A stretch of 64,000 nt of DNA from Chloroflexota bacterium (GTDB taxonomy: Bacteria > Chloroflexota > Anaerolineae > UBA4142), in contig JACRMI010000010.1 in assembly GCA_016215025.1 (NCBI GenBank), positions 12,331 through 76,330 of the forward strand, in the 5' to 3' direction. Of this stretch, positions 3,573 through 61,635 are shown piece after piece; the stretch's first letter is position 1; each line of letters begins with the position of its first letter. A program made the translations under genes and the position numbers. The notes below the pieces were generated by a model that ran no database searches, was not told where the DNA came from, and saw nothing but the letters and a program-made list of their open reading frames with translations.

Positions 3573-3641
3573 TGTCATTCTGAGCGCAGCGAAGAATCCC
3601 GTCCCGCGAAATGAGACCCTTCGCTTCGCTCAGGGTGACAC
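3573..3641. repeat. Hairpin repeat, GTCATTCTGAGCGCAGCGAAG...CTTCGCTTCGCTCAGGGTGACA family, copy 1
   Basis: Imperfect inverted repeat in the 3450-3654 intergenic gap. Related copies lie at 30925, 44614, 53284 and 53668. Confidence 0.85.
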
Positions 3642-7082: not shown

Positions 7083-10000
7083 TTAAAGATCATCCTTCAG
7101 TTTTTGCTGCAAACAGGTCATTGCCATCGCCACGAGTGCAAATCCGCCAAGCAGGAACCAACGACTCACTAGGTGTAGAACGGTGTGTCCATAATTGATT
7201 GACAACTCTGTGGGTGGTATGGGCACTCCATTCACTCTCTCAAGAGTTTGCAGGTACCGCATATCTATGATTGAACCGAGCGCATCCATTGTCCAATTCG
7301 TGGTGGTTATCCAAGATAACGGCTGTGCAATTTTTGGCAAAACGAAGATTGCGCCAGCGAAAAGAATCTCGATGAACAATACGAGCAAGATTGCATAGAT
7401 TACAACATCCTCGCTACGCGCAAGCGAAGAGATAAGAAGCCCTAGTCCAACACTTGCCAACGTCGCCAACACAAGTGTGATGTATATCTCCAACGGCGCT
7501 GGTAAGAATACGCCTTTTTCTGGTAACGTCACTCTGAACCCGATTACAAGTAGGAAAAAAGTCGATTGGATCAAGCTGAAGAAAAATAGAACGCCAACCT
7601 TGGAAAAGATGTACGGCAGGACGCCGAGATTCACCATTCGCTCGCGTTTGTAGATGTGTTGTTCGCGCACGATTTCATAAGCCGACGCGAAAATTCCGAG
7701 GAATACGGGGACAAGACTGACGATGAAAAGTAGCTTTTGTGCATCACCAACCTTGGCATAGTTCGCCATCATGGCGATCACCGCGACGTTTTCGCCTACG
7801 AGATCATTTGGATTCGCGATAGCCAACACCAAAATGGCAATGAGCGGCATGAGTGCTAGCAAGATAAAGAGTGTTACACGGTCGCGCACGATCAATTCAA
7901 AATACCGTTGCGAAAGAACCCACCATTGCCAGAATGGCGACCCTCTTGCCCGGCTAGGCGAAGCGGCGTGTGGAGTGTGCGTTGCGAGGTTCACGTTTTG
8001 CAATGGCATAGCAATGAACTGCTGATAGTACGGCGATTGTTTGAATTGTTGTTCCCAGTATTGCGGAGATTGATCGGGATTGTTTGGGTCATTCAATCGC
8101 GCGAGTTCTGAGTATATATCAGAAAAATCACTTTTCCGAAAGAATGCTAGGGCTTCGTCCGGTGGTCCGTAGAAAACCAACCGCCCGTTTGCCATAAATG
8201 CAACCTTGTTACACCGATATATATTCTGCGTCGCGTGTGCTACGAGAATAATCGTGTGGCCACGATCCGCCAACTGTTGTAACATGTGCATCATTCTCTT
8301 TTCCAAGCTTGGGTCAAGTCCCGAGGTTGGTTCATCAAGAAAAAGTAGCAAGGGGGCTGCCAGAAGTTCGATTGCGATGCACACGCGCTTAAGTTGTCCG
8401 CCACTCAATCGCCCAACGAGTTGATGACGTTGGTGCTCGATTTCAGTGACTTGCATTACTTCCTGAATGCGCTGTTCGATCTGTGCGCTTAACCAGTCTG
8501 AAGGTAAACGCAATCTTGCGGCATAGCGCAAATTACTTTCTACTGTCAATCCATGGTAAATAATATCAGCTTGCGGCACAATACCGAGCATCGCACGATA
8601 GATTTCGTAGTCGTGATAAAAATCTGTGCCGTTGATGAGTACCATTCCGTCCGCGCGTGTGAAACCGCTCAGTGCGCTCATCAGTGTAGACTTGCCCGAA
8701 CCGCTCGCTCCGACGAGTGCGACAAATTCGCGTGGCTGAATGGACAGCGACACATCGTTCAATATTAATCGCGCGCCGCTCTTTGTTGGCTCACGGCGAA
8801 CAAGATGCAGTGCATCGAATCGTACATTACCGAGAATGTTGAACTGCGACAATCCCGCGCGATCGTACGTCAATTGAAAGGGACCGATCTGCACGACATC
8901 GTTCGGGCGCAAAACGTGTTGTTGTATGCACACGCCGTTTACGAATGTGCCATTCGTTGAATTGAGATCGGTGAGCGTGTGCATGTTGCCGTCGAAATCG
9001 ACACGCGCATGATGCCATGATACCATTGGCGCGTTAAGCGGTATCGTCGTGTTCGGGTCGCGACCAATCAGCGTGGTCGGCGCAGAAAGATTCATGCGCA
9101 TCATTGCGACGGTTGATGCCGCACCTGTATCGACATAAGTGAGGCTGACCGAATTGCCGAACGCATCGCCAATACGGATCACGTCGTTGTGATTCAAGAG
9201 ATGATTGTTGACTCGTTGACCGTTCAGTAACAAACCGTTCGTACTAACGAGATCAACGATGCGATAACTCGCGCCGACACGTTCAAGTCGCGCGTGGTTC
9301 GCCGATACGAACAGATGATTAATGACGATGTCGTTCGTCGGTGAGCGCCCCAGGGAGTAAACCAGCTTGTCGAGAGGCACTTCAATTGGGCCTTTCCCGG
9401 CGATATGGATGACCAACTTACGTGCGCTCGTGGTCGTTTGTGGGGCAGTATGCTGTCTGATTGTAGATGGATTGAGAATCAGAGTTGCCCTTGTTAGCAA
9501 TTCAGACGCATCTTTGTAATGAGGACGAATTTCTATCACATCGGTGAATGCCCTTTGTGCCTCAGCCCACTGACCTTGTTTGAAAGCTTCCAGTCCCTCT
9601 ACATATCGGCCTGCAATTTCTCTACCTTGTTCTGCTTTTGTAAGGGCGTCTTTCAAGGTTTCGTTCTCAGAATCTTGGTGCATCAGCTGCTTTATTAATT
9701 CAATGGCATCATCCCATCTTTCCTGATATAGCAAGTCATATGCCGAGTCTATTTGTTGTCCAGATCGGAGTTCCTCTTGCAGGAGTGTGGCTTTTTCGTT
9801 TGCTCTCATGTTGCCCGGAGAAATTTCCAGTATACGAGAATAATCTTTGAGGGCGGCGTCGGTCTGATACCCTTTCTCCAATGAACTGGCTCTGTTGAAT
9901 AGCGTTTCCTCAAGTAGCTGTTTTCCTTCTTCTCGGTCTATCTCATATAAGGTTTCAAACTCGCGTATCGCATCATCAAACCTATCTTGTGCGCGATAAA

Positions 10001-11708: not shown

Positions 11709-13190
11709 TTACGGCGTTGCGACTCCGAACATGCCCATCGACCAAGCGGCGATGTTGACCACGGGATCGGGATATATCGCGAACGCAAGCACCAGCGCGC
11801 CAGTGATAACGAGCGAGAGCGTGACGAGCGGCGCAATGCGAATCGGCGTTGGGTCTTTCGGCGCTTCAAAGAATGCTTGGCGCACAACGCTGAAATAGTA
11901 GAAAACGGAGATGACGCTGTTGATGACGCCAATCGCGGCAAGTACAATGTAACCTTCGCGCAAGGCAGCGCCGAAAACAAAGAACTTGCCGATAAAGCCA
12001 GCCGTCGGCGGAATGCCGGCGAGCGAGAGGAAGAAGATGACGAACAGCGCAGCCACTAACGGAGCGCGTTTTACCAACCCGGCATACTCTGGAATCTCGA
12101 CGATGCCGGTTGTGTTTTCGATGGCGATCACGCAGATGAACGCGCCCAGGTTTGTAAACAGATAGGCAAAGAGATAGATCAAGATACCGTTCAAACCGGA
12201 GAAGGTAGGAGATGCTGTGAGGTTGACGGCGATCACACCGATGAGCATATAGCCCGCTTGCGCAATCGACGAGTAGGCGAGCATACGTTTGACGTTGGTT
12301 TGCTGCAACGCGGTGAGATTGCCGAGCGTCATCGTCAAAATCGAAATGACGACGAGCAGCGGAATCCACCCTTCTTTGTACGCAGGCAATGCGATGATGG
12401 CGAGTCGAAGCAGAACGGCAAAGCCCACCGCTTTCGGCCCGACCGAGAGGAAGGCCGTGACCGGCGTTGGCGCGCCTTCGTATGCGTCGGGAGCCCATTG
12501 ATGGAATGGGACGAGCGAAATCTTGAAACCCAGTCCAGCCAGCACGAGTGCTGTCGAGACCAGCCCGACCATGCGAACGGACGCATCGACAGTGTTGGTG
12601 AAGGTAGCGGCGATGTCGCTCAGGTTGAGCGAGCCACTGATGCCGTAGAGCAGCGAAAGACCGTAGAGCATCGTGGCGCTCGTAATCGCGCCGTAGAGGA
12701 AATACTTGATGGCTGACTCGTTCGATTTTTTATCGTCGCGCAAAAAGCCTGTGAGCAGATAGGACGTGTAACTCAAGAATTCAATCGAGAGATAGACCAT
12801 CAACAAGCTGCCAGAGCTGGCTGTCATCGTCATCGCCAGCACGGCGAACGTAAATATCGAGTAGAACTCGCCTTTGTAAGGTGTTCGATTTTTGAGATAA
12901 TCGATTGAGACCAACGTAAGGATGATGCCGGTGATGGCGGCAATCATCTTGAAGAACAGTGAGAACGTGTCGATGTAATACATTCCGGCGAATCGAGTTA
13001 CGTCCGATCCCCAAATGTAAAACGTTGCGCCAAGCGCGAGTGCGAATCCGAGAATCGTAATCCATGGCAAAATGCCCTGGCTTTTTTCGCGCCAGATCAC
13101 GTCGATCAGCAAAATGAGAATCCCGAAAATCGATAACACCAGTTCGGGTGAAATCAGAATCAGTGTTTGAGCATCAGGCATAATAGTCAC
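11709..13190 (-). CDS. nuoN: NADH-quinone oxidoreductase subunit N
   Basis: 493 aa, 14 TM, typical NuoN/ND2 antiporter-like fold; last gene of the nuo block. Confidence 0.9.
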   Translation of the reverse strand: MTIMPDAQTLILISPELVLSIFGILILLIDVIWREKSQGILPWITILGFALALGATFYIWGSDVTRFAGMYYIDTFSLFFKMIAAITGIILTLVSIDYLKNRTPYKGEFYSIFTFAVLAMTMTASSGSLLMVYLSIEFLSYTSYLLTGFLRDDKKSNESAIKYFLYGAITSATMLYGLSLLYGISGSLNLSDIAATFTNTVDASVRMVGLVSTALVLAGLGFKISLVPFHQWAPDAYEGAPTPVTAFLSVGPKAVGFAVLLRLAIIALPAYKEGWIPLLVVISILTMTLGNLTALQQTNVKRMLAYSSIAQAGYMLIGVIAVNLTASPTFSGLNGILIYLFAYLFTNLGAFICVIAIENTTGIVEIPEYAGLVKRAPLVAALFVIFFLSLAGIPPTAGFIGKFFVFGAALREGYIVLAAIGVINSVISVFYYFSVVRQAFFEAPKDPTPIRIAPLVTLSLVITGALVLAFAIYPDPVVNIAAWSMGMFGVATP

Positions 13191-13307
13191 CTAGTCAGTT
13201 AGTCGGATAGTTGGATAGTCAGGTAGTCAGATAGTTGGGTAGTCTCGTCGTGGAAAACGACTCATTGACTAGACAACTGCTCGACTAGGTGACTATCGAC
13301 TACTGGA
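13191..13307. repeat. Simple-repeat palindrome: TAGTC units on the left arm, GACTA units on the right arm
   Basis: TAGTCACCTAGTCAGTTAGTCGGATAGTTGGATAGTCAGGTAGTC...GACTAGACAACTGCTCGACTAGGTGACTATCGACTACTGGACTA fills the nuoM-nuoN gap. Confidence 0.85.
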
Positions 13308-14840
13308 CTACTTGACGAATGTACCAAGCAGCGCGACCGAAATCGTGTTGAGCGTATTCAGAATGACCGATGGCACGATGCCGATGAGAACCATCAAGAC
13401 CAGCAGCGGTGCCAGCGTTACAATCTCGTAAGTTTCCATGTCTTTCAAGCCTGCCCACTTTTCATTGAACGCGCCGAGGAGTACGTTCTGAATAACTTTC
13501 CACAACAGCAGGGCTGCGCCGAACACCACGCCGATTACGGCGAACGTCGCGATGACAGGCATAGTGGCGAACGAACCACGGAAGACCAGGAACTCGCTGA
13601 TAAACCCGGCGAGACCGGGCAAGCCGAGCGATGCAAACGAGGCGACGACCAGAATCGCGCCATAGACCGGAATCTTTGCGCCCAATCCGCCGAACTGTTT
13701 CAGCTCGCGGGTGTGCGTGCGTTCGTACAGCATACCGACGATAAAGAACAGCGCGCCCGTGATGACGCCGTGATTGAACATTTGGAGCGTTGCGCCGTTC
13801 AGCGCGATGCTGCGGTCTTCAAGCGTTGCACTGCCAAACGCGACAGCGGCTGCGATGCCGAGAATCACATAGCCCATGTGGTTCACGGACGAGTAAGCGA
13901 TCAACCGCTTAAAGTCCGTTTGCGCCATGGCGACGAGTGCGCCGTACACAATCGAGATGGCGGCGAGAACGGCGATAAGCGGCGCACTGGCTTGGAACAC
14001 TTGCGGGAAGATCGGGATCAACACGCGCACGATGCCGTACGTTCCGAGTTTTAGCAGAATGCCAGCCAGGATGACGGAACCCGCGGTCGGCGCGGCGGTA
14101 TGAGCATCAGGCAACCAAGTGTGGAACGGGAAGAGCGGAACCTTGATCGCAAAGGCGATAAAGATTGCCCAGAACGCAAGCGTCGCAAAACCGAAATCGT
14201 TGGCGAACGGTCGTCTGGCGGCAAGATCAATAATGTCGAATGTGCCGGGGGTGTTCGCGGTACTGGTGTTAATGTACATCGCGATGATCGCCAGAAGCAT
14301 AAAGACGGAACCGGCAAGCGTGTAGAGAAAGAACTTGATCGACGAGTACAGCGGGCGGTCTTCTTTGTGTCCCCAGATCGCGATGAGAAAGTACATTGGA
14401 ACCAAGCCCAGTTCCCAGAAAACGTAGAACAGGAAAAAGTCCAGCGAGATGAACACGCCGAGCATACCGACCTGAAGCAGCAGGAACATGAAAAAGAATT
14501 CGCGCACGCGTTCGTGAACCACCCGCGACGAGTAGTACAGCGAAAGCGTCGTGAGCAACGTTGTGAGCCAGATGAGTGGAATGCTCAAACCGTCCACGCC
14601 GACGTGATAGTTCACGTTGAGTGTCGTAATCCAGGGATACACTTCTTCAAGCTGCATCTTGGCCAGGTTGGGATTGAACATCCAGAACCATAGGTACGAT
14701 GCGAGCGCGAGTGGGATCAAGCTCCACACAATCGAAAAGCGCTCGATGAGTTTGTCATTTCCCTTGGGCAGCAACAGCACAATGATTGCGCCGATAAGGG
14801 GCAGTGCGACAAGAATCGACAAGTAAGGAATGGTCGTCAT
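13308..14840 (-). CDS. nuoM: NADH-quinone oxidoreductase subunit M
   Basis: NuoM/ND4 family. The start is trimmed to the ATG at 14840 (MTTIPYLSIL), which has GGAGGA 9 nt upstream. The longer ORF-track N-terminus is encoded by the adjacent hairpin. Confidence 0.9.
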   Translation of the reverse strand: MTTIPYLSILVALPLIGAIIVLLLPKGNDKLIERFSIVWSLIPLALASYLWFWMFNPNLAKMQLEEVYPWITTLNVNYHVGVDGLSIPLIWLTTLLTTLSLYYSSRVVHERVREFFFMFLLLQVGMLGVFISLDFFLFYVFWELGLVPMYFLIAIWGHKEDRPLYSSIKFFLYTLAGSVFMLLAIIAMYINTSTANTPGTFDIIDLAARRPFANDFGFATLAFWAIFIAFAIKVPLFPFHTWLPDAHTAAPTAGSVILAGILLKLGTYGIVRVLIPIFPQVFQASAPLIAVLAAISIVYGALVAMAQTDFKRLIAYSSVNHMGYVILGIAAAVAFGSATLEDRSIALNGATLQMFNHGVITGALFFIVGMLYERTHTRELKQFGGLGAKIPVYGAILVVASFASLGLPGLAGFISEFLVFRGSFATMPVIATFAVIGVVFGAALLLWKVIQNVLLGAFNEKWAGLKDMETYEIVTLAPLLVLMVLIGIVPSVILNTLNTISVALLGTFVK

Positions 14841-14857: not shown

Positions 14858-14943
14858 CCTCACCTCTCACCCCTCAGTCCCCTCTCCCCTCTCCCGACTG
14901 AACTTCGTCGGGAGAGGGGAGAGGGTAAGGGGAGTGGGGTGAG
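14858..14943. repeat. Long polypyrimidine/polypurine hairpin (CCTCACCTCTCACCCCTCAGTCCCCTCTCCCCTCTCCCGAC / GTCGGGAGAGGGGAGAGGGTAAGGGGAGTGGGGTGAGG)
   Basis: Inverted repeat of about 38 bp per arm with a 9-nt loop, exactly in the nuoL-nuoM gap. Confidence 0.85.
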
Positions 14944-14944
14944 G

Positions 14945-17569: not shown

Positions 17570-17578
17570 ATTTACTCC

Positions 17579-17634
17579 AGTGAACAGTGAACAGTGAACA
17601 GTGGAGGTTCTTACTGATTACTGTTCACTGTTCG
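17579..17634. repeat. Simple-repeat palindrome: GTGAACAG x3 / CTGTTCAC x2
   Basis: AGTGAACAGTGAACAGTGAACAGTGG...TACTGTTCACTGTTCGC in the nuoJ-nuoK gap. The same motif family recurs at 27950 and inside hypF. Confidence 0.85.
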
Positions 17635-17644
17635 CTTCGCGTGA

Positions 17645-19935: not shown

Positions 19936-20952
19936 GTGAATACTCAACCAAGCATCATCGACCAACCCGACGCGCGCACGTGGAACGATTTTATCGCATC
20001 GCAACGCGGTCACATTTTGCAATCCGCCGAGTGGGGCGAACTCAAATCTCAATTCGGCTGGAGCGTCCAGCGATTCATTTTGACGCGCGCTGAAAAAATG
20101 ATGGCGGGCGCGCAAATTCTTTTCCGATCTATGCCGCTTGGCTTGCGCTTGGCATACATCCCGCGCGGTCCCGTGGTCGATTTCAACGATAATAACACCG
20201 TCAGTCAACTTTTCGATGCGACCTTCCGAATTGCAAAATCGCGCGGCGCATTCGCGTTGAAACTCGAACCGAATGTGCTTGCGACGACCAAATTGCAACT
20301 TGAAACGTGCAACCTGCAACCTGCTTCGAGTATCCAACCGCGTACGACTATTCATCTCGATCTCACGCGCAACCTTGATACGATTCTCGCGCAGATGAAA
20401 CCCAAGTGGCGCTACAACATTCGACTCGCGGATCGCAAAGGCATTGTCGTGCGCCCAGGCAGCCGCGATGACGTATCGACTTTTTATCACTTGATGCAAA
20501 TCACGAGCGAACGTGACAAGTTTGCTGTCCACTCGATGGATTATTATAGCACGGCCTTTGATCTTTTTACCGCACGCGACTATGCGCGCCTTTTCGTCGC
20601 CGAATACGAGCATGAGCCACTCGCAATGATTTTTGTGACGGCGTTCGGCGGCGAAGCCATTTATCTTTACGGCGCATCGTCGAACGCGCATCGCGAGCGT
20701 ATGCCCAATCATGCCTTGCATTGGTCGGCGATTCAATGGGCGAAGGAGCGTGGCTGTGTGCGTTATGACTTGTGGGGGCTGGGTGCAACCACAGACGCAG
20801 ATGCGCAAACGGCACATGGTCTCTATCAATTCAAGCAGGGCTTTGGGGGAGAGATGGTGCAATACATAGGCGGATATGATGCAGTTTTTTCACGTTGGCG
20901 ATATAAAGTATATCGCCAAGCACTATCATGGCGACGTGGAATGTTAGGATAA
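19936..20952 (+). CDS. FemAB-family peptidoglycan aminoacyl (interpeptide bridge) transferase
   Basis: 338 aa, FemAB/GNAT-like signature region (KPKWRYNIR...AIYLYGASS...HWSAIQWAKERG). GTG start. A TATAAT lies 7 nt upstream, so the mRNA may be leaderless. Confidence 0.7.
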   Translation: MNTQPSIIDQPDARTWNDFIASQRGHILQSAEWGELKSQFGWSVQRFILTRAEKMMAGAQILFRSMPLGLRLAYIPRGPVVDFNDNNTVSQLFDATFRIAKSRGAFALKLEPNVLATTKLQLETCNLQPASSIQPRTTIHLDLTRNLDTILAQMKPKWRYNIRLADRKGIVVRPGSRDDVSTFYHLMQITSERDKFAVHSMDYYSTAFDLFTARDYARLFVAEYEHEPLAMIFVTAFGGEAIYLYGASSNAHRERMPNHALHWSAIQWAKERGCVRYDLWGLGATTDADAQTAHGLYQFKQGFGGEMVQYIGGYDAVFSRWRYKVYRQALSWRRGMLG

Positions 20953-27941: not shown

Positions 27942-27949
27942 ACGCAGTA

Positions 27950-28017
27950 AGCAGTCAACAGTCAACAGTGAACAGTTTTCGGTTTTCTACTGATTACTGT
28001 TCACTGATTACTGTTTA
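27950..28017. repeat. Simple-repeat palindrome (CAGTCAACAG / CTGTTCACTG family)
   Basis: AGTCAACAGTCAACAGTGAACAG...TACTGTTCACTGATTACTGTTTAC after the pspA stop. Confidence 0.8.
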
Positions 28018-28034
28018 CTTTCTAGGATGTTCCT

Positions 28035-30924: not shown

Positions 30925-30987
30925 TTGTCATTTCGAGCGAAGCGAGAAATCTGATTTCTCACTTGCTTCGCTCGTTCGAAATGACAT
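30925..30987. repeat. Hairpin repeat, TGTCATTTCGAGCGAAGCGAGAAATC...GATTTCTCACTTGCTTCGCTCGTTCGAAATGACA (family copy 2)
   Basis: Near-perfect palindrome between the vWA gene and the flotillin gene. Confidence 0.85.
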
Positions 30988-39421: not shown

Positions 39422-41128
39422 ATGCCCAAGATTGCAATCGATCCGGTTACCAGAATCGAAGGACACTTGCGCATCGAAGTTCAAATCGATGGTGGCAAAG
39501 TCACCGATGCTTGGAGTTCCAGCACGATGTTTCGCGGCATGGAAATCATTCTCAAGGGGCGCGACCCGCGCGATGCCTGGGTCTTTACGCAGCGCATCTG
39601 CGGCGTTTGCACGACAGTTCATGCCGCCACGTCGGTGCGTGCCGTCGAAAACGCGCTCGGTATTACGATTCCGCTCAACGCGCAAATCATCCGCAACATC
39701 ATCGAAGGTATTCAGTTCGTCCAAGATCACGTCATTCATTTTTATCATCTGCACGCGCTCGACTGGGTTGACATCGTCAGCGCGTTGAAAGCCGATCCGG
39801 CCGGTACTTCAAAACTCGCGCAGTCGATTTCCGATTGGCACAATTCCTCCGAATCGTATTTCAAAGGCGTGCAAAACAAGATCAAGGCGTTTGTCGATTC
39901 CGGCCAGCTGGGTCCATTCGCGAATGGATACTGGGGACATCCCGCATACAAGTTGCCGCCCGAAGCGAACTTGATGGCGGTCGCGCACTATCTCGAAGCG
40001 CTCGATTGGCAGCGTGAAGTCATTCGCGTTCATGCGATTCTCGGCGCAAAGAATCCGCACTTGCAGACGTACCTCGTCGGCGGCATGTCGGTTCCCATCG
40101 ATCCAAACAGTCAGAACGCGATCAACGCCGACAAACTTGCGCTCATCAAAGGATGGCTCGCGCAAGCGCGTCAGTTTGTCGAAAAAGTTTACATTCCCGA
40201 TTTGCTCGCCGTCGCGCCGTTCTATAAAGACTGGGCGGGCTATGGCGCAGGACTAGGGAATTTCCTCGCGTACGGTGAGTTCCCGCAGGCACCTGATAAT
40301 TCGGACTTGTTTCTCAAGCGCGGTGTTATCTTGGGCAAAGACCTCACCAAAGTTCTACCCATGGATCACCAAAAAGTCGCCGAGTACGTCGCGCACTCGT
40401 GGTACGATTACGGCGCTGGCGATGCCAAAGCGCTGCATCCCTGGGACGGCGAAACGCAGCCGCATTACACCGGACCCAAGCCACCCTATGAATCGATGGT
40501 GGGCGACAATCCGAAATATTCCTGGCTCAAAGCGCCGCGCTACGACGGCAACGCAATGGAAGTCGGTCCGCTCGCGCGTATGCTCGTGTCATACGCTTCC
40601 GGCGTCAAGCCCGTCGTCGATACGGTCAATCTCGTTTTGAAAACGCTCGGCGTTGGTGCGGAAGCATTGTTCTCGACCCTCGGTCGAACGGCAGCACGCG
40701 GAGTTGAAACACTCGTGCTAGCGCAGCAACTTGAGGGCTGGGTCGATGCATTAGCAGCGAATATCAAGCGCGGCGATTTAAAAGTTCACAATGGCGAAAA
40801 ATGGGACCCCAGCAAGTGGCCCGCCGAAGCAAAGGGCTGGGGTTTTCTCGAAGCGCCACGCGGCGCACTGGGACACTGGGTCAGCATCAAGAACGGCGCG
40901 ATCAACAATTATCAATGCGTCGTGCCATCGACGTGGAACGGCTCGCCGCGCGATGCGAACGGCAAACGCGGCGCGTGGGAAGAAGCGCTCATCGGAACGC
41001 CGGTCGCCAATGTCGATCAACCGGTCGAAATCTTGCGCACCGTTCACTCGTTCGATCCGTGTATGGCGTGTTCGGTGCATGTCGTCGATACAAGCGGGCG
41101 CGAGTTGACGAAGGTGCGGGTAATGTGA
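39422..41128 (+). CDS. hyaB: [NiFe] uptake hydrogenase large subunit
   Basis: N-terminal RICGVC and C-terminal DPCMACSVH nickel-binding motifs. Confidence 0.92.
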   Translation: MPKIAIDPVTRIEGHLRIEVQIDGGKVTDAWSSSTMFRGMEIILKGRDPRDAWVFTQRICGVCTTVHAATSVRAVENALGITIPLNAQIIRNIIEGIQFVQDHVIHFYHLHALDWVDIVSALKADPAGTSKLAQSISDWHNSSESYFKGVQNKIKAFVDSGQLGPFANGYWGHPAYKLPPEANLMAVAHYLEALDWQREVIRVHAILGAKNPHLQTYLVGGMSVPIDPNSQNAINADKLALIKGWLAQARQFVEKVYIPDLLAVAPFYKDWAGYGAGLGNFLAYGEFPQAPDNSDLFLKRGVILGKDLTKVLPMDHQKVAEYVAHSWYDYGAGDAKALHPWDGETQPHYTGPKPPYESMVGDNPKYSWLKAPRYDGNAMEVGPLARMLVSYASGVKPVVDTVNLVLKTLGVGAEALFSTLGRTAARGVETLVLAQQLEGWVDALAANIKRGDLKVHNGEKWDPSKWPAEAKGWGFLEAPRGALGHWVSIKNGAINNYQCVVPSTWNGSPRDANGKRGAWEEALIGTPVANVDQPVEILRTVHSFDPCMACSVHVVDTSGRELTKVRVM

Positions 41129-41205
41129 CGAGTGTCAAGTGACAAGGTAAGTAACACGTAAGACGTGACACCTCCCTTGTCACACGTCACATGTCACTTG
41201 TCACA
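41129..41205. repeat. Palindromic element (GTGACAAG / CTTGTCAC and ACGTGACAC / GTCACACGTCAC motifs)
   Basis: AGTGTCAAGTGACAAGGTAAGTAACACGTAAGACGTGACACCTCCCTTGTCACACGTCACATGTCACTTGTCAC in the hyaB-hyaC gap. Confidence 0.8.
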
Positions 41206-41216
41206 TTGGAGGAATT

Positions 41217-44613: not shown

Positions 44614-44694
44614 TGTCATTCTGAGCGGAGCGGTTTTTGCGGAGCGAAGAATCTCGCTCTGCAAAGCGAGACCCTTCGCTTCGCTCAGGGTGAC
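44614..44694. repeat. Hairpin repeat TGTCATTCTGAGCGGAGCGG...CTTCGCTTCGCTCAGGGTGACA (family copy 3)
   Basis: Related to the copy at 3573 and sharing its right arm CTTCGCTTCGCTCAGGGTGACA; lies between the cytochrome c gene and fdnG. Confidence 0.85.
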
Positions 44695-47918: not shown

Positions 47919-48712
47919 TAAAATCAATGTTAATTGACACTTCCGTCTGTATCGGTTGCAAGGGTTGCCAGGTGGCATGCAAAGAATGGTGGAACCTCGC
48001 GGCGACGCCGACGACCCAGATCGGTACGTACGAAAATCCACTCGATCTGAACGCGAACACGTTAACACGCATTCGGTTCAATGAGTACGAATCGAACGGC
48101 AAAGTGCGTTGGCTCTTTTTGAAATGGGGCTGTATGCACTGCACGGACGCCGCCTGCGTCGATGTGTGTCCGACGGCTGCGCTCAAGAAAAATTCGCTCG
48201 GTTTCGTTTCGCTCGAACGCGAACTATGCAACGGCTGCGGCTATTGTTCGCAGGCGTGTCCGTTCAACATCCCGCGCATGGACACAAGCGATGCGTTGAC
48301 CGGCGCAGCCAAAGCGACCAAGTGTACGTTCTGCCAAGATCGGGTGTCGAACGAACTGACGCCGGCGTGCGTCAAGACGTGTCCTGCGACCGCGCTTAGC
48401 TTTAATGATCGTGACAAGGTGCTCGCCACCGCGAAATCCCGCGTCGAAGATTTGAAGAAGCTGGGTTATGCCGAAGCACGTGTCTACGGCGAAACCGAAC
48501 TCGGTGGACTCGGTCGTGTCTATGTGCTGACTGCGCCCGCAGCCGCATACGGCTTGCCAGAGAAACCGGAATATCCGGCGCTGGCGGGCTTGTGGCAAAA
48601 TGTCGTTCAGCCGTTCGGCTATGTTGCAACGGGTCTCGTCGCCGCAGGTCTGGCGATCAACTGGTTCGCCACGCGTCGCGCGCACCTCGGCGATGTAGAA
48701 ACAGTCAAATAG
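47919..48712 (+). CDS. fdnH: Formate dehydrogenase-N iron-sulfur (beta) subunit
   Basis: Four CxxCxxCxxxCP ferredoxin motifs plus a C-terminal TM anchor. Confidence 0.9.
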
Positions 48713-48825
48713 TCATCTAGTCGTATAGTCGGAGAGTCAATTAGTCAGGTCGTCACAAGAAAACTGACTAACTGGCAAGTGACTATTTGACTATTTGACT
48801 ACTCGACTATAAGACTCGGAGAATA
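48705..48825. repeat. Simple-repeat palindrome, TAGTC family (largest copy)
   Basis: CAAATAGTCATCTAGTCGTATAGTCGGAGAGTCAATTAGTCAGGTCGTC...GTGACTATTTGACTATTTGACTACTCGACTATAAGACTCGG in the fdnH-fdnI gap. Confidence 0.85.
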
Positions 48826-50775: not shown

Positions 50776-53250
50776 ATGCCGATTCGCAAGATTCACGTGA
50801 CCGGCATTGTTCAAGGCGTTGGGTTTCGCCCCTTCGTCTACCAAATCGCGACGCGTGCCAAGTTGCATGGCTGGGTCGTGAATACCTCTGCCGGCGTCGA
50901 AATTGAAATTGAAGGCGATACGGCGACGCTGGACGATTTCCTCCGTGCGCTCACCCACGATAAACCGCCTCTTGCTCGAATCGATTCAATCAACGTCGTA
51001 GACCTCCCCACAAATGGTCATGAGCGATTTGATCGATTTGAAATCCGCGAGAGTGTTGCGCTCGCTGGTGCGTTCCAGCCCATCTCGCCCGATATTTCGA
51101 TTTGCCCCGATTGCCTCCGCGAGCTTTTCGATCCGAACGACCGCCGCTATCTTTATCCGTTTATCAACTGCACCAATTGTGGCCCGCGCTTTACGATCAT
51201 CGAAGACATTCCGTATGACCGTCCCAAGACGACGATGAAGACATTTCCGATGTGCGATGATTGCGCACGCGAATACCACGACCCACTGAATCGACGTTTT
51301 CACGCGCAGCCGGTCGCGTGTCCGAAATGTGGTCCAAAAGTTTGGCTGGAAAACAATTCTCAATCCCAGACGGCGGATTACGTTCTACGTTTTACGCATC
51401 ACGCATCACGTGTTACGAATCACGATGCAATCGCCGCAACACAGGAGTTGCTGAATGACGGAGCGATCGTCGCCATCAAAGGTCTCGGCGGCTTTCATCT
51501 CGCCTGCGATGCGACGAATGCCAACGCGGTTTCCGAACTGCGTCGCCGAAAACTTCGCGTCGATAAACCCTTTGCGCTAATGATGCCGGACCTTGCGACC
51601 GTTGAGCAGCATTGCTTTGTCGACGCCGATGAGCGCGCATTGCTCGAATCACACGAACGACCGATTGTACTCTTGCACCGCCGTCCCGATTCTCTTATCG
51701 CCGACCAAGTCGCGCCGAACAATCATTTCCTGGGTGTGATGCTGCCATACACGCCACTGCATTACCTGCTGATGAATAATTCGCCATCAGCTACCAGCTA
51801 TCAGCTATCCGCTTTGGTCATGACCAGCGGCAACCTCAGCGAAGAACCTATCGCTAGCGACAACGACGATGCGCGCGAACGTCTGTCATCGCTCGCTGAT
51901 GCTTTTCTCATGCACGACCGCGACATCCGTACTCGCTGCGACGATTCCGTCATGCGTGTACTCTCTGTTCCGCTTAATGTTCGTTCAGCCACAGAGAACA
52001 CCGAGATCACAGAGAAAACAAATCAACTGAACACTGAAAACTGTTCACTGAATACGGTTCACCGTTCACTGTTCACTGCCCGAAGGGACTATCCACTAAG
52101 ACGTTCTCGCGGCTACGCTCCGTTCCCAGTCCATCTTCCTTTCGATGCGCCGCCCATGCTTGCGACCGGCGCAGAACTCAAGAATACGTTTTGCATCACG
52201 CGTGACCGCTATGCTTTTCTCAGTCATCACATTGGCGATTTGGAAAATTACGAAACGCTGAAATCGTTTGAGGATGGCGTTGCACATTTCGAGCGGTTGT
52301 TCCGCGCGCAGCCGCAACTCATCGCGTACGACTTGCATCCGAACTATCTCGCTACCCGCTATGCGCTTGACCGTGCCGAACGAGAGCGAGTGCCTGCGAT
52401 TGGCGTTCAACATCATCATGCGCACATCGCCGCCTGCATGGTCGAGAACGGCTTGAGCGGTGAGCGTTCCGTGATCGGCGTTGCATTCGATGGCACGGGT
52501 TACGGCGACGATGGCGCAATTTGGGGCGGCGAATTCCTAATTGCCGATTACCGAAATTACCGCCGCGCTTTTCATCTTGATTACGTTCCCTTGCCCGGCG
52601 GTGATAAAGCTGTGCGCGAACCCTGGCGCATCGCTTTGGCTTGGTTACACAAGGCGAAAATCGAATGGTCGAACGATTTAGCGTGCGTGTGCGCCGCCGA
52701 CGAACAGACGCGACACGTTGTACGCAACCAAATCGAACGTAGCACGAATGCGCCGTTGACATCGAGCATGGGACGATTGTTTGATGCGGTCGCGGCACTC
52801 GCGGGCGTACGGGAGACAGTCAACTATGAAGCGCAAGCCGCTATCGAATTTGAAAATCAGTATTCAGTAATCAGTAATCAGTTTTCAGATCAAGAGGACA
52901 ATTACCAATTACCAATTACCAATTCAAGAACCATCGATCCCATTCCAATGATTCAATCTGTCGTCGCGGATGTCCGTGCGGGCGTGACTATCGGCGAAAT
53001 ATCGGCGCGGTTTCATGGCGGTGTTGCGGCGATGGTGCATGATGTCTGCGTAACGTTGCGTGAGCGCGAGGAATTGAACGAGGTCGCGTTGAGCGGTGGC
53101 GTGTGGCAGAACATGACGCTGCTCGCAAAAACAATTGAGTTGTTGCAGGGCGACGGTTTCACGGTTTACATCCATCGCCAAGTTCCAACGAACGACGGCG
53201 GCTTGGCGCTGGGGCAAGCGGCGATTGCAGCAAAGAAATTCATGATTTAG
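50776..53250 (+). CDS. hypF: Carbamoyltransferase HypF (with three in-frame simple-repeat insertions)
   Basis: Acylphosphatase, two zinc fingers, and YrdC and Kae1-like domains are all present. The protein is 824 aa, compared with about 750 aa for E. coli HypF. Confidence 0.9.
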   Translation: MPIRKIHVTGIVQGVGFRPFVYQIATRAKLHGWVVNTSAGVEIEIEGDTATLDDFLRALTHDKPPLARIDSINVVDLPTNGHERFDRFEIRESVALAGAFQPISPDISICPDCLRELFDPNDRRYLYPFINCTNCGPRFTIIEDIPYDRPKTTMKTFPMCDDCAREYHDPLNRRFHAQPVACPKCGPKVWLENNSQSQTADYVLRFTHHASRVTNHDAIAATQELLNDGAIVAIKGLGGFHLACDATNANAVSELRRRKLRVDKPFALMMPDLATVEQHCFVDADERALLESHERPIVLLHRRPDSLIADQVAPNNHFLGVMLPYTPLHYLLMNNSPSATSYQLSALVMTSGNLSEEPIASDNDDARERLSSLADAFLMHDRDIRTRCDDSVMRVLSVPLNVRSATENTEITEKTNQLNTENCSLNTVHRSLFTARRDYPLRRSRGYAPFPVHLPFDAPPMLATGAELKNTFCITRDRYAFLSHHIGDLENYETLKSFEDGVAHFERLFRAQPQLIAYDLHPNYLATRYALDRAERERVPAIGVQHHHAHIAACMVENGLSGERSVIGVAFDGTGYGDDGAIWGGEFLIADYRNYRRAFHLDYVPLPGGDKAVREPWRIALAWLHKAKIEWSNDLACVCAADEQTRHVVRNQIERSTNAPLTSSMGRLFDAVAALAGVRETVNYEAQAAIEFENQYSVISNQFSDQEDNYQLPITNSRTIDPIPMIQSVVADVRAGVTIGEISARFHGGVAAMVHDVCVTLREREELNEVALSGGVWQNMTLLAKTIELLQGDGFTVYIHRQVPTNDGGLALGQAAIAAKKFMI

Positions 53251-53283
53251 GATTTCTGATTTATGATTTACTCATCTTGCGGG

Positions 53284-53357
53284 TTGTCATTTCGAGCGAA
53301 GCGAGAAATCTCACCAGACGTACAGATTTCTCCTCACTCCGTTCGTCGAAATGACAC
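53284..53357. repeat. Hairpin repeat TGTCATTTCGAGCGAAGCGAGAAATC...GTTCGTCGAAATGACA (family copy 4), nested inside a GATTT/AAATC palindrome
   Basis: In the hypF-hypC gap. The flanks GATTTCTGATTTATGATTT ... AAATCATAAATCATAATTCAGAAATC are themselves inverted. Confidence 0.85.
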
Positions 53358-53409
53358 TGTACGAACAAAATCATAAATCATAATTCAGAAATCTGAAATT
53401 GGAGGATAT

Positions 53410-53667: not shown

Positions 53668-53783
53668 TTGTCATGCTGAGCGGAGCGAAGCATCTCTCAA
53701 TTTAGCGTGGCGAGATGCTTCGTCGCAATCCTTCGACTCCGTCGTTCTGCGACTTTGCTCAAGATGCTCCTCAGCATGACAAG
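53668..53783. repeat. Hairpin repeat TTGTCATGCTGAGCGGAGCGAAGCATCTC...GATGCTCCTCAGCATGACAA (family copy 5, longest)
   Basis: Begins the nucleotide after the hypC stop and ends about 20 nt before the hypD start. Confidence 0.85.
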
Positions 53784-53801
53784 ACCTAGATGGGAGATGG
53801 C

Positions 53802-61379: not shown

Positions 61380-61390
61380 CGGTTCCTCCA

Positions 61391-61635
61391 AGTCGTCGTA
61401 GCGCGAGCGGCTCGCTCGCGACTCAAGTCAGCGTAGCACAAGCGGCTCGCTCGCGACTCAAGTCAGCGTAGCACAAGCGGCTCGCTCGCGACTCAAGTCA
61501 GCGTAGCACAAGCGGCTCGCTCGCGACTCAGGTCATCGTGGCACAAGCGGCTCGCTCGCGACTCAAGTCATCGTAGCGCGAGCGGCTCGCTCGCGACTCA
61601 AGTCAGCGTAGCACAAGCAGCTCGATCGCGTCTGA
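61391..61635. repeat. 35-bp tandem array, 7 copies, each carrying the 19-bp perfect palindrome CGCGAGCG-GCT-CGCTCGCG
   Basis: Units AGTCAGCGTAGCACAAGCGGCTCGCTCGCGACTCA at exact 35-bp phasing (61391, 61426, 61461, 61496, 61531, 61566, 61601). There are no unique spacers, so it is not CRISPR. Confidence 0.9.

Follow-up and report, generated by a model that had tools for sequence, protein, structure and literature searches.

We found that hypF, the gene for the carbamoyltransferase HypF, contains four sites with short tandem repeats in its coding sequence in a Chloroflexota bacterium. The gene lies at positions 50776-53250 on the plus strand of the window, by which we mean the whole stretch of 64,000 nt that was analysed (assembly GCA_016215025.1, contig JACRMI010000010.1, positions 12,331 to 76,330 of the forward strand; GC content 52.7%). 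With a probability of about 0.7, we interpret these sites as heptanucleotide arrays of a class that also occupies the intergenic DNA of this genome and resembles the cyanobacterial STRR repeats (short tandemly repeated repetitive sequences). They would be tolerated in loops of the protein, kept in frame by selection, and changed in length by slippage.

The open reading frame (ORF) encodes 824 aa, compared with 760-771 aa, and its product is 100% identical to a database carbamoyltransferase HypF (P0001, Chloroflexi bacterium) from a metagenome-assembled genome (MAG). Two sources yielded this same protein, on 3 contigs in all, and MAGs of Anaerolineae/Anaerolineales are the nearest genomes. All five Pfam domains of HypF are present (PF00708, PF07503, PF01300, PF17788 and PF22521), in the expected order of an acylphosphatase domain, two zinc fingers, a YrdC-like domain and a Kae1-like domain, and the protein matches the solved structure 3VTH over its full length (E = 2.8e-208) and also matches 4G9I. 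The gene is flanked by hypA and by hypC-hypD, with formate dehydrogenase genes upstream.

Heptanucleotide arrays in hypF and between genes

Arrays were located by Tandem Repeats Finder (TRF) and by a separate period scan; all of those in hypF are described on the plus strand. Site 1 (51379-51427), in the linker that joins the zinc fingers to the YrdC-like domain, consists of (TACGTTN)/(CACGNNT) heptamers and encodes the peptide YVLRFTHHASRVTNH; TRF reports ACGCATC x2.4 at 51394-51410, and the period scan stretches the site to 51379-51417. Site 1b (51783-51816; 51786-51813 in TRF) holds four copies of ATCAGCT in a loop of the YrdC-like domain, with the peptide SPSATSYQLSAL. Site 2 lies in the interdomain linker from the YrdC-like to the Kae1-like domain and has two parts. 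The left part (51990-52020) was found by TRF as CACAGAGAA x3.4 with a period of 9, that is, three codons, and encodes TENTEITEKT, and the right part (52026-52081) is an (ACTGAAN)/(ACTGTTC) array with the peptide LNTENCSLNTVHRSLFTA, for which TRF gives ACTGAAC/ACTGTTC with period 7/14 at 52026-52078. Site 3 has a left arm of (TCAGTAA)-type units at 52854-52890 (peptide NQYSVISNQFS; AATCAGT x4 at 52855-52882 in TRF) and a right arm of (CAATTAC) x3.7 at 52896-52927 (peptide NYQLPITNS; 52899-52924 with 100% matches in TRF). The longest perfect tract in any of these arrays is 3.7 units. The initial annotation had reported repeat stretches at three places inside hypF; TRF finds arrays at each of them, the peptides quoted there are exact, and the fourth stretch at 51783-51816 had been missed.

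Period 7 is the only period that stands out in the window. In an enrichment scan that required three or more units and a self-identity of 85% or above, 19 arrays of period 7 were observed against 0.14 expected in shuffled sequence, while periods 5, 6 and 8-12 gave 0-2 arrays each, at or near the shuffled counts, and period 4 remained at background level (15 arrays against 16.9 expected). A slightly looser threshold gave 24 period-7 arrays where 1.8 were expected. Five of these are in hypF, one in a gene similar to FemX/FemAB, two in a doubtful ORF and 16 between genes, and yet about 88% of the window is coding. Two units of the hypF arrays are identical to units of intergenic arrays, with an expected sharing of 0.02. 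These are CACTGTT, which occurs between genes at 17578 and 17620 and in site 2 at 52064, and AATTACC/GGTAATT, which occurs at 408 (408-422) and in site 3 at 52899. Furthermore, the left unit of site 3 is found reverse-complemented in the intergenic array at 27988-28019, the right part of site 2 matches 17578-17599 over 22 nt (95%), and site 3 matches the intergenic hairpin at 27942-28024 over 25 nt (88%). The claim that the stretches in hypF follow the same grammar as the intergenic elements is borne out by the two identical units. It is the DNA with its period of 7, and not the peptide, that is the repeated entity, and the peptides are by-products.

The intergenic arrays are inverted pairs, and the five hairpins that were tested had DNA-fold z scores from -4.1 to -6.7, with 0 of 200 shuffles as stable. 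Three of the hairpins are useful comparators for hypF. The first, (CAGTGAA)n/(ACTGTTC)n at 17575-17636, has a unit in common with site 2 and a DNA fold of -18 kcal/mol (z -6.65, 0/200 shuffles as stable). The second, (CAGTNAA)n/(TTACTGN)n at 27942-28024, is related to sites 2 and 3 and is likewise stable in the DNA fold (z -5.34, 0/200). The third occupies the hypF-hypC spacer at 53237-53400 and was delimited as an inverted repeat and by TRF; it has the heptamer arms ATTTATG/AAATCAT, a nested core repeat at 53286-53310, and a left arm that overlaps the last codons of hypF.

Hairpins with arms of inverted 7- or 8-nt-unit arrays fill most of the short spacers of the nuo, fdh and hyp rows (13183-13316, 14858-14944, 17575-17636, 27942-28024, 41125-41207, 48703-48816 and 53237-53400). 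Since the heptamer hairpins have no T tail and a consensus terminator scan makes no call for them, they are not described here as intrinsic terminators. No Rfam family was found anywhere in the window. The core repeat, GTCATNNNGAGCGNAGCGANNNATC, is dispersed over the window in seven copies (0.14 expected), at 3574-3598, 3615-3639, 30927-30951, 44615-44639, 44670-44694, 53286-53310 and 53670-53694, none of them within hypF. Some of these copies are inverted pairs about 40-55 nt apart, and one copy alone forms a hairpin at 53668-53785.

Position in the protein and reading frame

The positions of the arrays in the protein were compared by sequence alignment with 3VTH (Caldanaerobacter), 4G9I (Thermococcus) and 3TSP (E. 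coli). The extra residues of site 1 (about 192-208) follow the CGPxxW motif in the linker from zinc finger to YrdC-like domain, and about 13-15 aa are missing there from all three solved proteins. Those of site 1b (about 334-346) fall in a YrdC loop, those of site 2 (394-438) in the linker from the YrdC to the Kae1-like domain, where the solved proteins have about 2-6 residues, and the residues of site 3 (about 695-715) in a hairpin of the Kae1-like domain. Counted against the shortest linkers of the clade (P0103, P0028 and P0065/P0020), the excess amounts to about +13, +8, +38 and +7 aa, roughly 66 aa in total. At site 3 the array mostly replaces sequence and does not purely insert it, as the CAATTAC array encodes NYQLPIT over a conserved Y-x-F-x-I hairpin/strand; Tyr710, which is invariant or nearly so across the family, is kept. 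An AlphaFold2 model built on 119 homologs reached a mean predicted local distance difference test (pLDDT) score of 80.7 and a predicted template modelling (pTM) score of 0.85. In this model pLDDT is below 50 at residues 404-435, 53 at 201-210, 70 at 331-340 and 71-78 at 691-710, and the blocks adjoining the array segments mostly score 84-95, lower just past site 2. By the alignments and this model, the extra residues are predicted to occupy two interdomain linkers and two loops that are tolerant and largely disordered.

Several claims of the initial annotation can be judged from this comparison. It had placed extra residues at short loops of E. coli HypF, which holds against 3TSP as well as against 3VTH and 4G9I; its estimate of a protein about 70 aa longer than typical agrees with the excess of roughly 66 aa; and the in-frame location in loops or linkers is supported by both the structure-gap alignment and the low pLDDT. 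Orthologs from unrelated lineages lack the extra residues, so that these do not look like ancestral linker sequence. The word insertion is apt in that the residues are extra relative to distant orthologs, and it does not fit site 3, which is mostly a replacement.

The sites in hypF were also described as palindromic. None of the four sites folds more stably than shuffled sequence under DNA parameters (z -0.5 to -2.0). Under RNA parameters, which allow G-U pairs, site 3 reaches significance (z -4.7 for the antisense and -3.5 for the sense strand), and sites 1 and 2 show no significant fold. The description is thus retained for site 3, if G-U pairs are allowed, and dropped for sites 1, 1b and 2. 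The two arms of site 3 agree at five of seven positions and pair only via A-C contacts on the sense strand or G-U contacts on the antisense strand. A perfect complement of the left arm would be ATTACTG, placing TGA in frame; the actual right arm reads ATTACCA. No consistent pattern emerged when sense and antisense RNA stability was compared between coding and intergenic arrays, and the antisense advantage of the window arrays arises because their sense strand is A/C-rich.

Two signs of selection on the reading frame can be seen, the avoidance of stop codons and, between two relatives, a length step of 21 nt. A perfect array of TCAGTAA, ACTGAAC or ATTACTG would hold a stop codon in each of its frames; those units that hypF repeats perfectly, namely CAATTAC, ACTGTTC, ACGCATC and ATCAGCT, have no stop in any frame. 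In site 3, exactly the two units in which TAA would be in frame, three apart, have TAT and TTT in its place. In site 2, the unit with TGA is changed to ACTGTTC or ACCGTTC exactly at the phase where TGA would be read, and units bearing TGA are present only in phases in which it is out of frame. Relatives behave likewise, with TGT or TAT instead of TAG or TAA. The suggestion that the stretches were selected to be multiples of three is therefore right in spirit, in the form of stop avoidance and 21-nt steps.

One further coding array shows that hypF is not alone in this. The FemX/FemAB-like peptidoglycan bridge gene at 19936-20952 (plus strand) contains an in-frame heptamer array at 20289-20328 with the peptide TKLQLETCNLQPAS. 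Where this array lies, homologs of FemX possess a hypervariable loop of 7-aa periodic peptides, and the peptide THHASRITHHD of one homolog is a close match to site 1 of HypF (HHASRVTNHD in the window, HASRITAHD in the related hypF locus L081). Another FemX homolog holds the peptide SFDFAQDKS, which is that of the core repeat.

The arrays in relatives and their possible origin

The nearest HypF proteins share 72-77% identity with that of the window over their whole length, and 81-85% if the four sites are left aside. In alignments of proteins and of codons, these sites are hypervariable across the clade and carry differing 7-aa periodic peptides that are translated heptamer arrays, such as (TCAGAAG)4, (AATTCGA)3.5 and (GGTCAGT)4, or (GACGAAC)n together with (CCCTCGC)n, or (CAGATGG)n together with (CCATCAG)n. 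Strong in-frame hairpins occur at site 2 of L026 (z -8.6), site 3 of L083 (z -6.4) and site 2 of L002 (z -5.8). Close relatives hold arrays, not empty sites, at all four positions. In site 1, HASRVTNHD of the window corresponds to HASRITAHD of L081, and the CACG part is common to both; the right part of site 2 is orthologous to an ACTGNCC array of L081. At site 1b only the right arm is left in the window, and the same loop has a two-armed heptamer hairpin in L086, L085 and L081 (z about -3 to -4). Site 3 has the layout (NNNCAGT)x4, spacer, (AATTNNN)x4 in five genomes (the window, L081, L085 and L082, and decayed in L086), and each genome has homogenised the three variable bases of its unit in its own way. 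As parts of the arrays have orthologs in relatives that are 81-85% identical outside the sites, they are old and not recent insertions. As judged from these alignments, the arrays are under concerted evolution and decay. Specific to the window is a segment of at least 72 nt (24-26 codons) in site 2 that contains the 9-nt TEN/TEI/TEK array and is found in no close relative; no target duplications flank this segment.

Over 82 other hypF loci, period-7 arrays have a density of 0.372 per kb in hypF, 0.068 in neighbouring coding sequence and 0.31 in intergenic DNA, and those in hypF gather at the same four sites. A few MAGs outside the Chloroflexi also have hypF arrays (Brocadiaceae, Ratteibacteria, Pyrinomonadaceae). 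In the Brocadiaceae MAG (L058), site 1 holds (ATTTTGG/ATTTCGG)n at hypF nt 591-625 and site 2 holds (AAAATCC)n at nt 1201-1237; the two arrays are mutual reverse complements, 600 nt apart. In clusters of HypF proteins with an identity of 90% or more, the four sites account for most of the internal differences in length; an exception is a 20-aa gap in P0135. The one length change observed directly separates L087 from L088, which are more than 99% identical with a handful of substitutions over 860 nt. They differ by an indel of exactly 21 nt, or three units, in the in-frame (AATGNNG)n array of site 1 (L087 2065-2085), the frame being preserved, and this indicates a change of the slippage type. 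When frameshifted alleles were sought among 84 hypF loci, four failed the ORF filter, of which three proved intact and one (L047) broken. The break of L047 lies at residues 622-624 (7686-7691), away from any heptamer array, and is probably a sequencing error; the isolate/contig naming would suggest a long-read assembly.

The mechanism that we favour would combine these observations as follows. Arrays would sit, and be translated, where HypF tolerates added residues, and selection would keep the gene open, such that only stop-free units are perfectly repeated, units with an in-frame stop are mutated, and length changes survive as steps of three units (21 nt). Replication slippage is the presumed mechanism of growth in the genome of the window, and template switching at quasi-palindromes might keep hairpin arms matched. 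The copies in the window may be partly decayed, one-armed or re-coded versions of the two-armed in-frame hairpins of relatives, and their peptides would have no function. The first arrival of an array at a site could be by local seeding or by copying from another array. Local seeding plus slippage is supported by site 3 of L083 and L084, where the array is continuous with the ancestral Y-E-F-E-I codons (GAATTCGAAATT for E-F-E-I). In distant lineages without arrays these codons, TA(C/T)GAATT(C/T)GA(A/G)AT, already form a proto-repeat of 1.6 units.

Several points weigh against this account. Seven units occur in at least three sequences, compared with 0 in shuffles, although two of the seven, AACATTC and ACGCGCT, are probably conserved hypF coding sequence rather than arrays. 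AATTACC is found in site 3 of the window, at 408, in site 1 of L087, in the hypA-hypF spacer of L087 and in L005; in L087 it runs as (AATTACC)n at site 1, and the spacer has it as a (GGTAATT)n/(AATTACC)n hairpin. AAATTCG occurs at both site 1 and site 3 of L083. Plain slippage from random local seeds fails to predict the same units at non-homologous sites, genes and genomes, of which the THHASRITHHD peptide in a FemX homolog is a further example. In addition, the enrichment of arrays in hypF was measured on loci picked by their similarity to the HypF of the window, the latter is the sole member of its 90%-identity cluster, and a scan of metagenomes for length variants of site 3, with two exact anchors and a variable gap, found nothing. 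The neutrality of the array peptides is an assumption. Copying between arrays, or a strong sequence preference, may be in play besides local origin.

An active, sequence-specific copying process, either ectopic templating or an enzyme or mobile system, might spread the heptamer arrays in place of passive slippage, and would be common to filamentous bacteria among the Cyanobacteria, Beggiatoaceae and Anaerolineae. We consider this reading unlikely. It is compatible with the data because units recur across non-homologous sites, genes and genomes and because hairpin arms stay complementary even though each of them is a tandem array. If it were true, the in-frame loop arrays of HypF and FemX would be footprints and dated markers of the process.

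[quoted passage not shown] The identity of hypF and intergenic units would fit such elements, as would the occurrence of the same unit at differing hypF sites, genes and genomes, the perfect two-armed in-frame hairpins of relatives and the in-frame placement at structurally permissive positions, for which the in-frame RPEs of Rickettsia offer a precedent (PMC10969869). In L084 (P0012), moreover, a member of the dispersed core family, 'GAGCGAAGC', is nested and translated within the site 3 hairpin (peptide ILSEAKGS), and the core family has seven copies in the window. However, a short-word BLAST of the four inserts against the rest of the window gave best matches of only 13-25 nt, confined to the array; neither terminal inverted repeats nor target duplications were found in the window; and as the unit differs from locus to locus, a consensus element does not exist. 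The hypF arrays of the window are not significant hairpins, unless G-U pairs are allowed at site 3, the arrays are of old date with orthologs in relatives, the change observed is variation in unit number, and site 3 replaces ancestral sequence rather than interrupting it. A recently inserted mobile palindromic element was thus not upheld: copies have the length of an array only, terminal repeats and target duplications are lacking, and the arrays are old and orthologous.

It seems improbable that the arrays are functional, be it as a phase-variation switch or as an mRNA structure or translation pause that regulates the synthesis or folding of HypF. A slip by one unit would shift the frame and switch HypF off, since 7 is not a multiple of 3; two of the sites mark domain boundaries; and hypF is 5.5-fold enriched over neighbouring genes across several phyla. 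The perfect runs are short, however, at 3.7 units at most, the sole polymorphism found keeps the frame, and the sole frameshifted hypF of the 84 loci (L047) breaks away from any array. Sequences and lengths of the arrays are not conserved among relatives, sites 1 and 2 of the window have no significant sense-strand structure, and FemX has the same kind of array in an ordinary loop. Very improbable, finally, is an ordinary fast-evolving linker without a repeat process at the DNA level, or an assembly artefact. The sites are length-hypervariable in all lineages, as a linker might be, but the periodicity is 7 nt and not codon-based, only period 7 is enriched, and the units are common to intergenic DNA; the artefact was rejected because two sources gave the same protein, on 3 contigs, and because dozens of assemblies made independently contain analogous arrays.

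Known repeat systems and significance

Two other repeats of the window should be mentioned. The intergenic gap 61389-61630 contains 6.9 head-to-tail copies of a 35-nt unit, CAAGTCAGCGTAGCACAAGCGGCTCGCTCGCGACT (92% matches); a clustered regularly interspaced short palindromic repeats (CRISPR) array was ruled out here, as there are no spacers. The region 402-561 combines the heptamer arrays TGGTAAT and TGGAGAT with a 27-nt repeat, where ORF 88-420 ends and ORF 427-996 begins. The latter has no Pfam match and is a putative gene, or might start further downstream.

The STRR heptanucleotides were reportedly described from heterocyst-forming cyanobacteria by Mazel et al. in 1990, and STRR sequence is said, going by the title of a 1997 paper by Vioque, to lie within a functional RNase P RNA gene. 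STRR1 has the unit CCCCAGT and STRR3 the unit CAACAGT, and several units of the window likewise have a CAGT core. Hairpins of 7-bp STRRs are typical of filamentous cyanobacteria, where they also occur in the spacers of hydrogenase operons (PMC2670836). The window resembles them in its 7-bp tandem unit, mostly intergenic location, inverted-array hairpins and presence in hydrogenase operon spacers. Unlike the STRRs, with cyanobacterial hosts and three named units, the window belongs to an Anaerolineae-like member of the Chloroflexota with many units per genome, and its arrays are translated within a conserved enzyme at four recurrent sites. As a host in the Chloroflexota lies outside those described for heptamer repeats (cyanobacteria, Beggiatoaceae and some Bacteroidetes), we call the class STRR-like.

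The small dispersed repeats (SDR) nested in heptamer repeats of Nostoc are said to have been described by Elhai et al. in 2008. The window offers a parallel in the core repeat inside the heptamer hairpin 53237-53400, and L084 in the related core of its site 3 hairpin, although the core sequence is not known to be related to the Nostoc SDRs. The SDRs are also mentioned in PMC5861425. The TAACTGA repeats of Beggiatoaceae, Cyanobacteria and Bacteroidetes are mostly intergenic; in forward orientation they have stops in all frames, in reverse they encode LSVISYQ peptides within ORFs, and close strains differ in them by indels of 7 nt (MacGregor 2015, PMC4679880). The units are one base apart (TTACTGA/TCAGTAA here, TAACTGA/TCAGTTA there), LSVISYQ is similar to NQYSVISNQFS of site 3, and in both systems copies within ORFs lie where the protein tolerates them. 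In the TAACTGA system, however, one heptamer dominates per genome and stands directly upstream of start codons, and the in-ORF cases are mostly in hypothetical proteins or at termini, whereas the arrays of the window are internal to the conserved HypF and FemX, have many units and hairpin pairs, and in hypF include orthologous arrays that can be traced across species.

The RPEs, in-frame selfish DNA of about 150 bp (Ogata et al. 2000, as summarised in PMC10969869), are similar in that repeat DNA is translated in frame in unrelated housekeeping genes at positions compatible with the fold. They differ in having a family consensus and a conserved peptide, while the window has a grammar of 7-nt units, locus-specific peptides and changes in unit number. 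Contingency loci also have short tandem repeats in coding regions with a unit length that is not a multiple of three, but the arrays studied here are imperfect and of small length, alleles out of frame were not observed, and the one variant is in frame. More generally, among the long simple repeats of bacteria it is heptamers that are most over-represented, for which slippage of the polymerase has been put forward as the cause (PMC4692102; PMC4679880).

We found no paper describing heptamer arrays in Chloroflexota, and the present arrays would extend this repeat class to the phylum. No origin or function has become accepted for STRRs and their relatives, although they have been known since 1990. 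The HypF arrays can be aligned over dozens of genomes, so that birth, homogenisation, decay and unit change would be readable against a protein clock. Roughly 66 residues of HypF, and similar 7-aa periodic peptides of Anaerolineae proteins such as FemX, would be translated repeat DNA and not functional motifs, and for structure or expression work it can probably be trimmed away.

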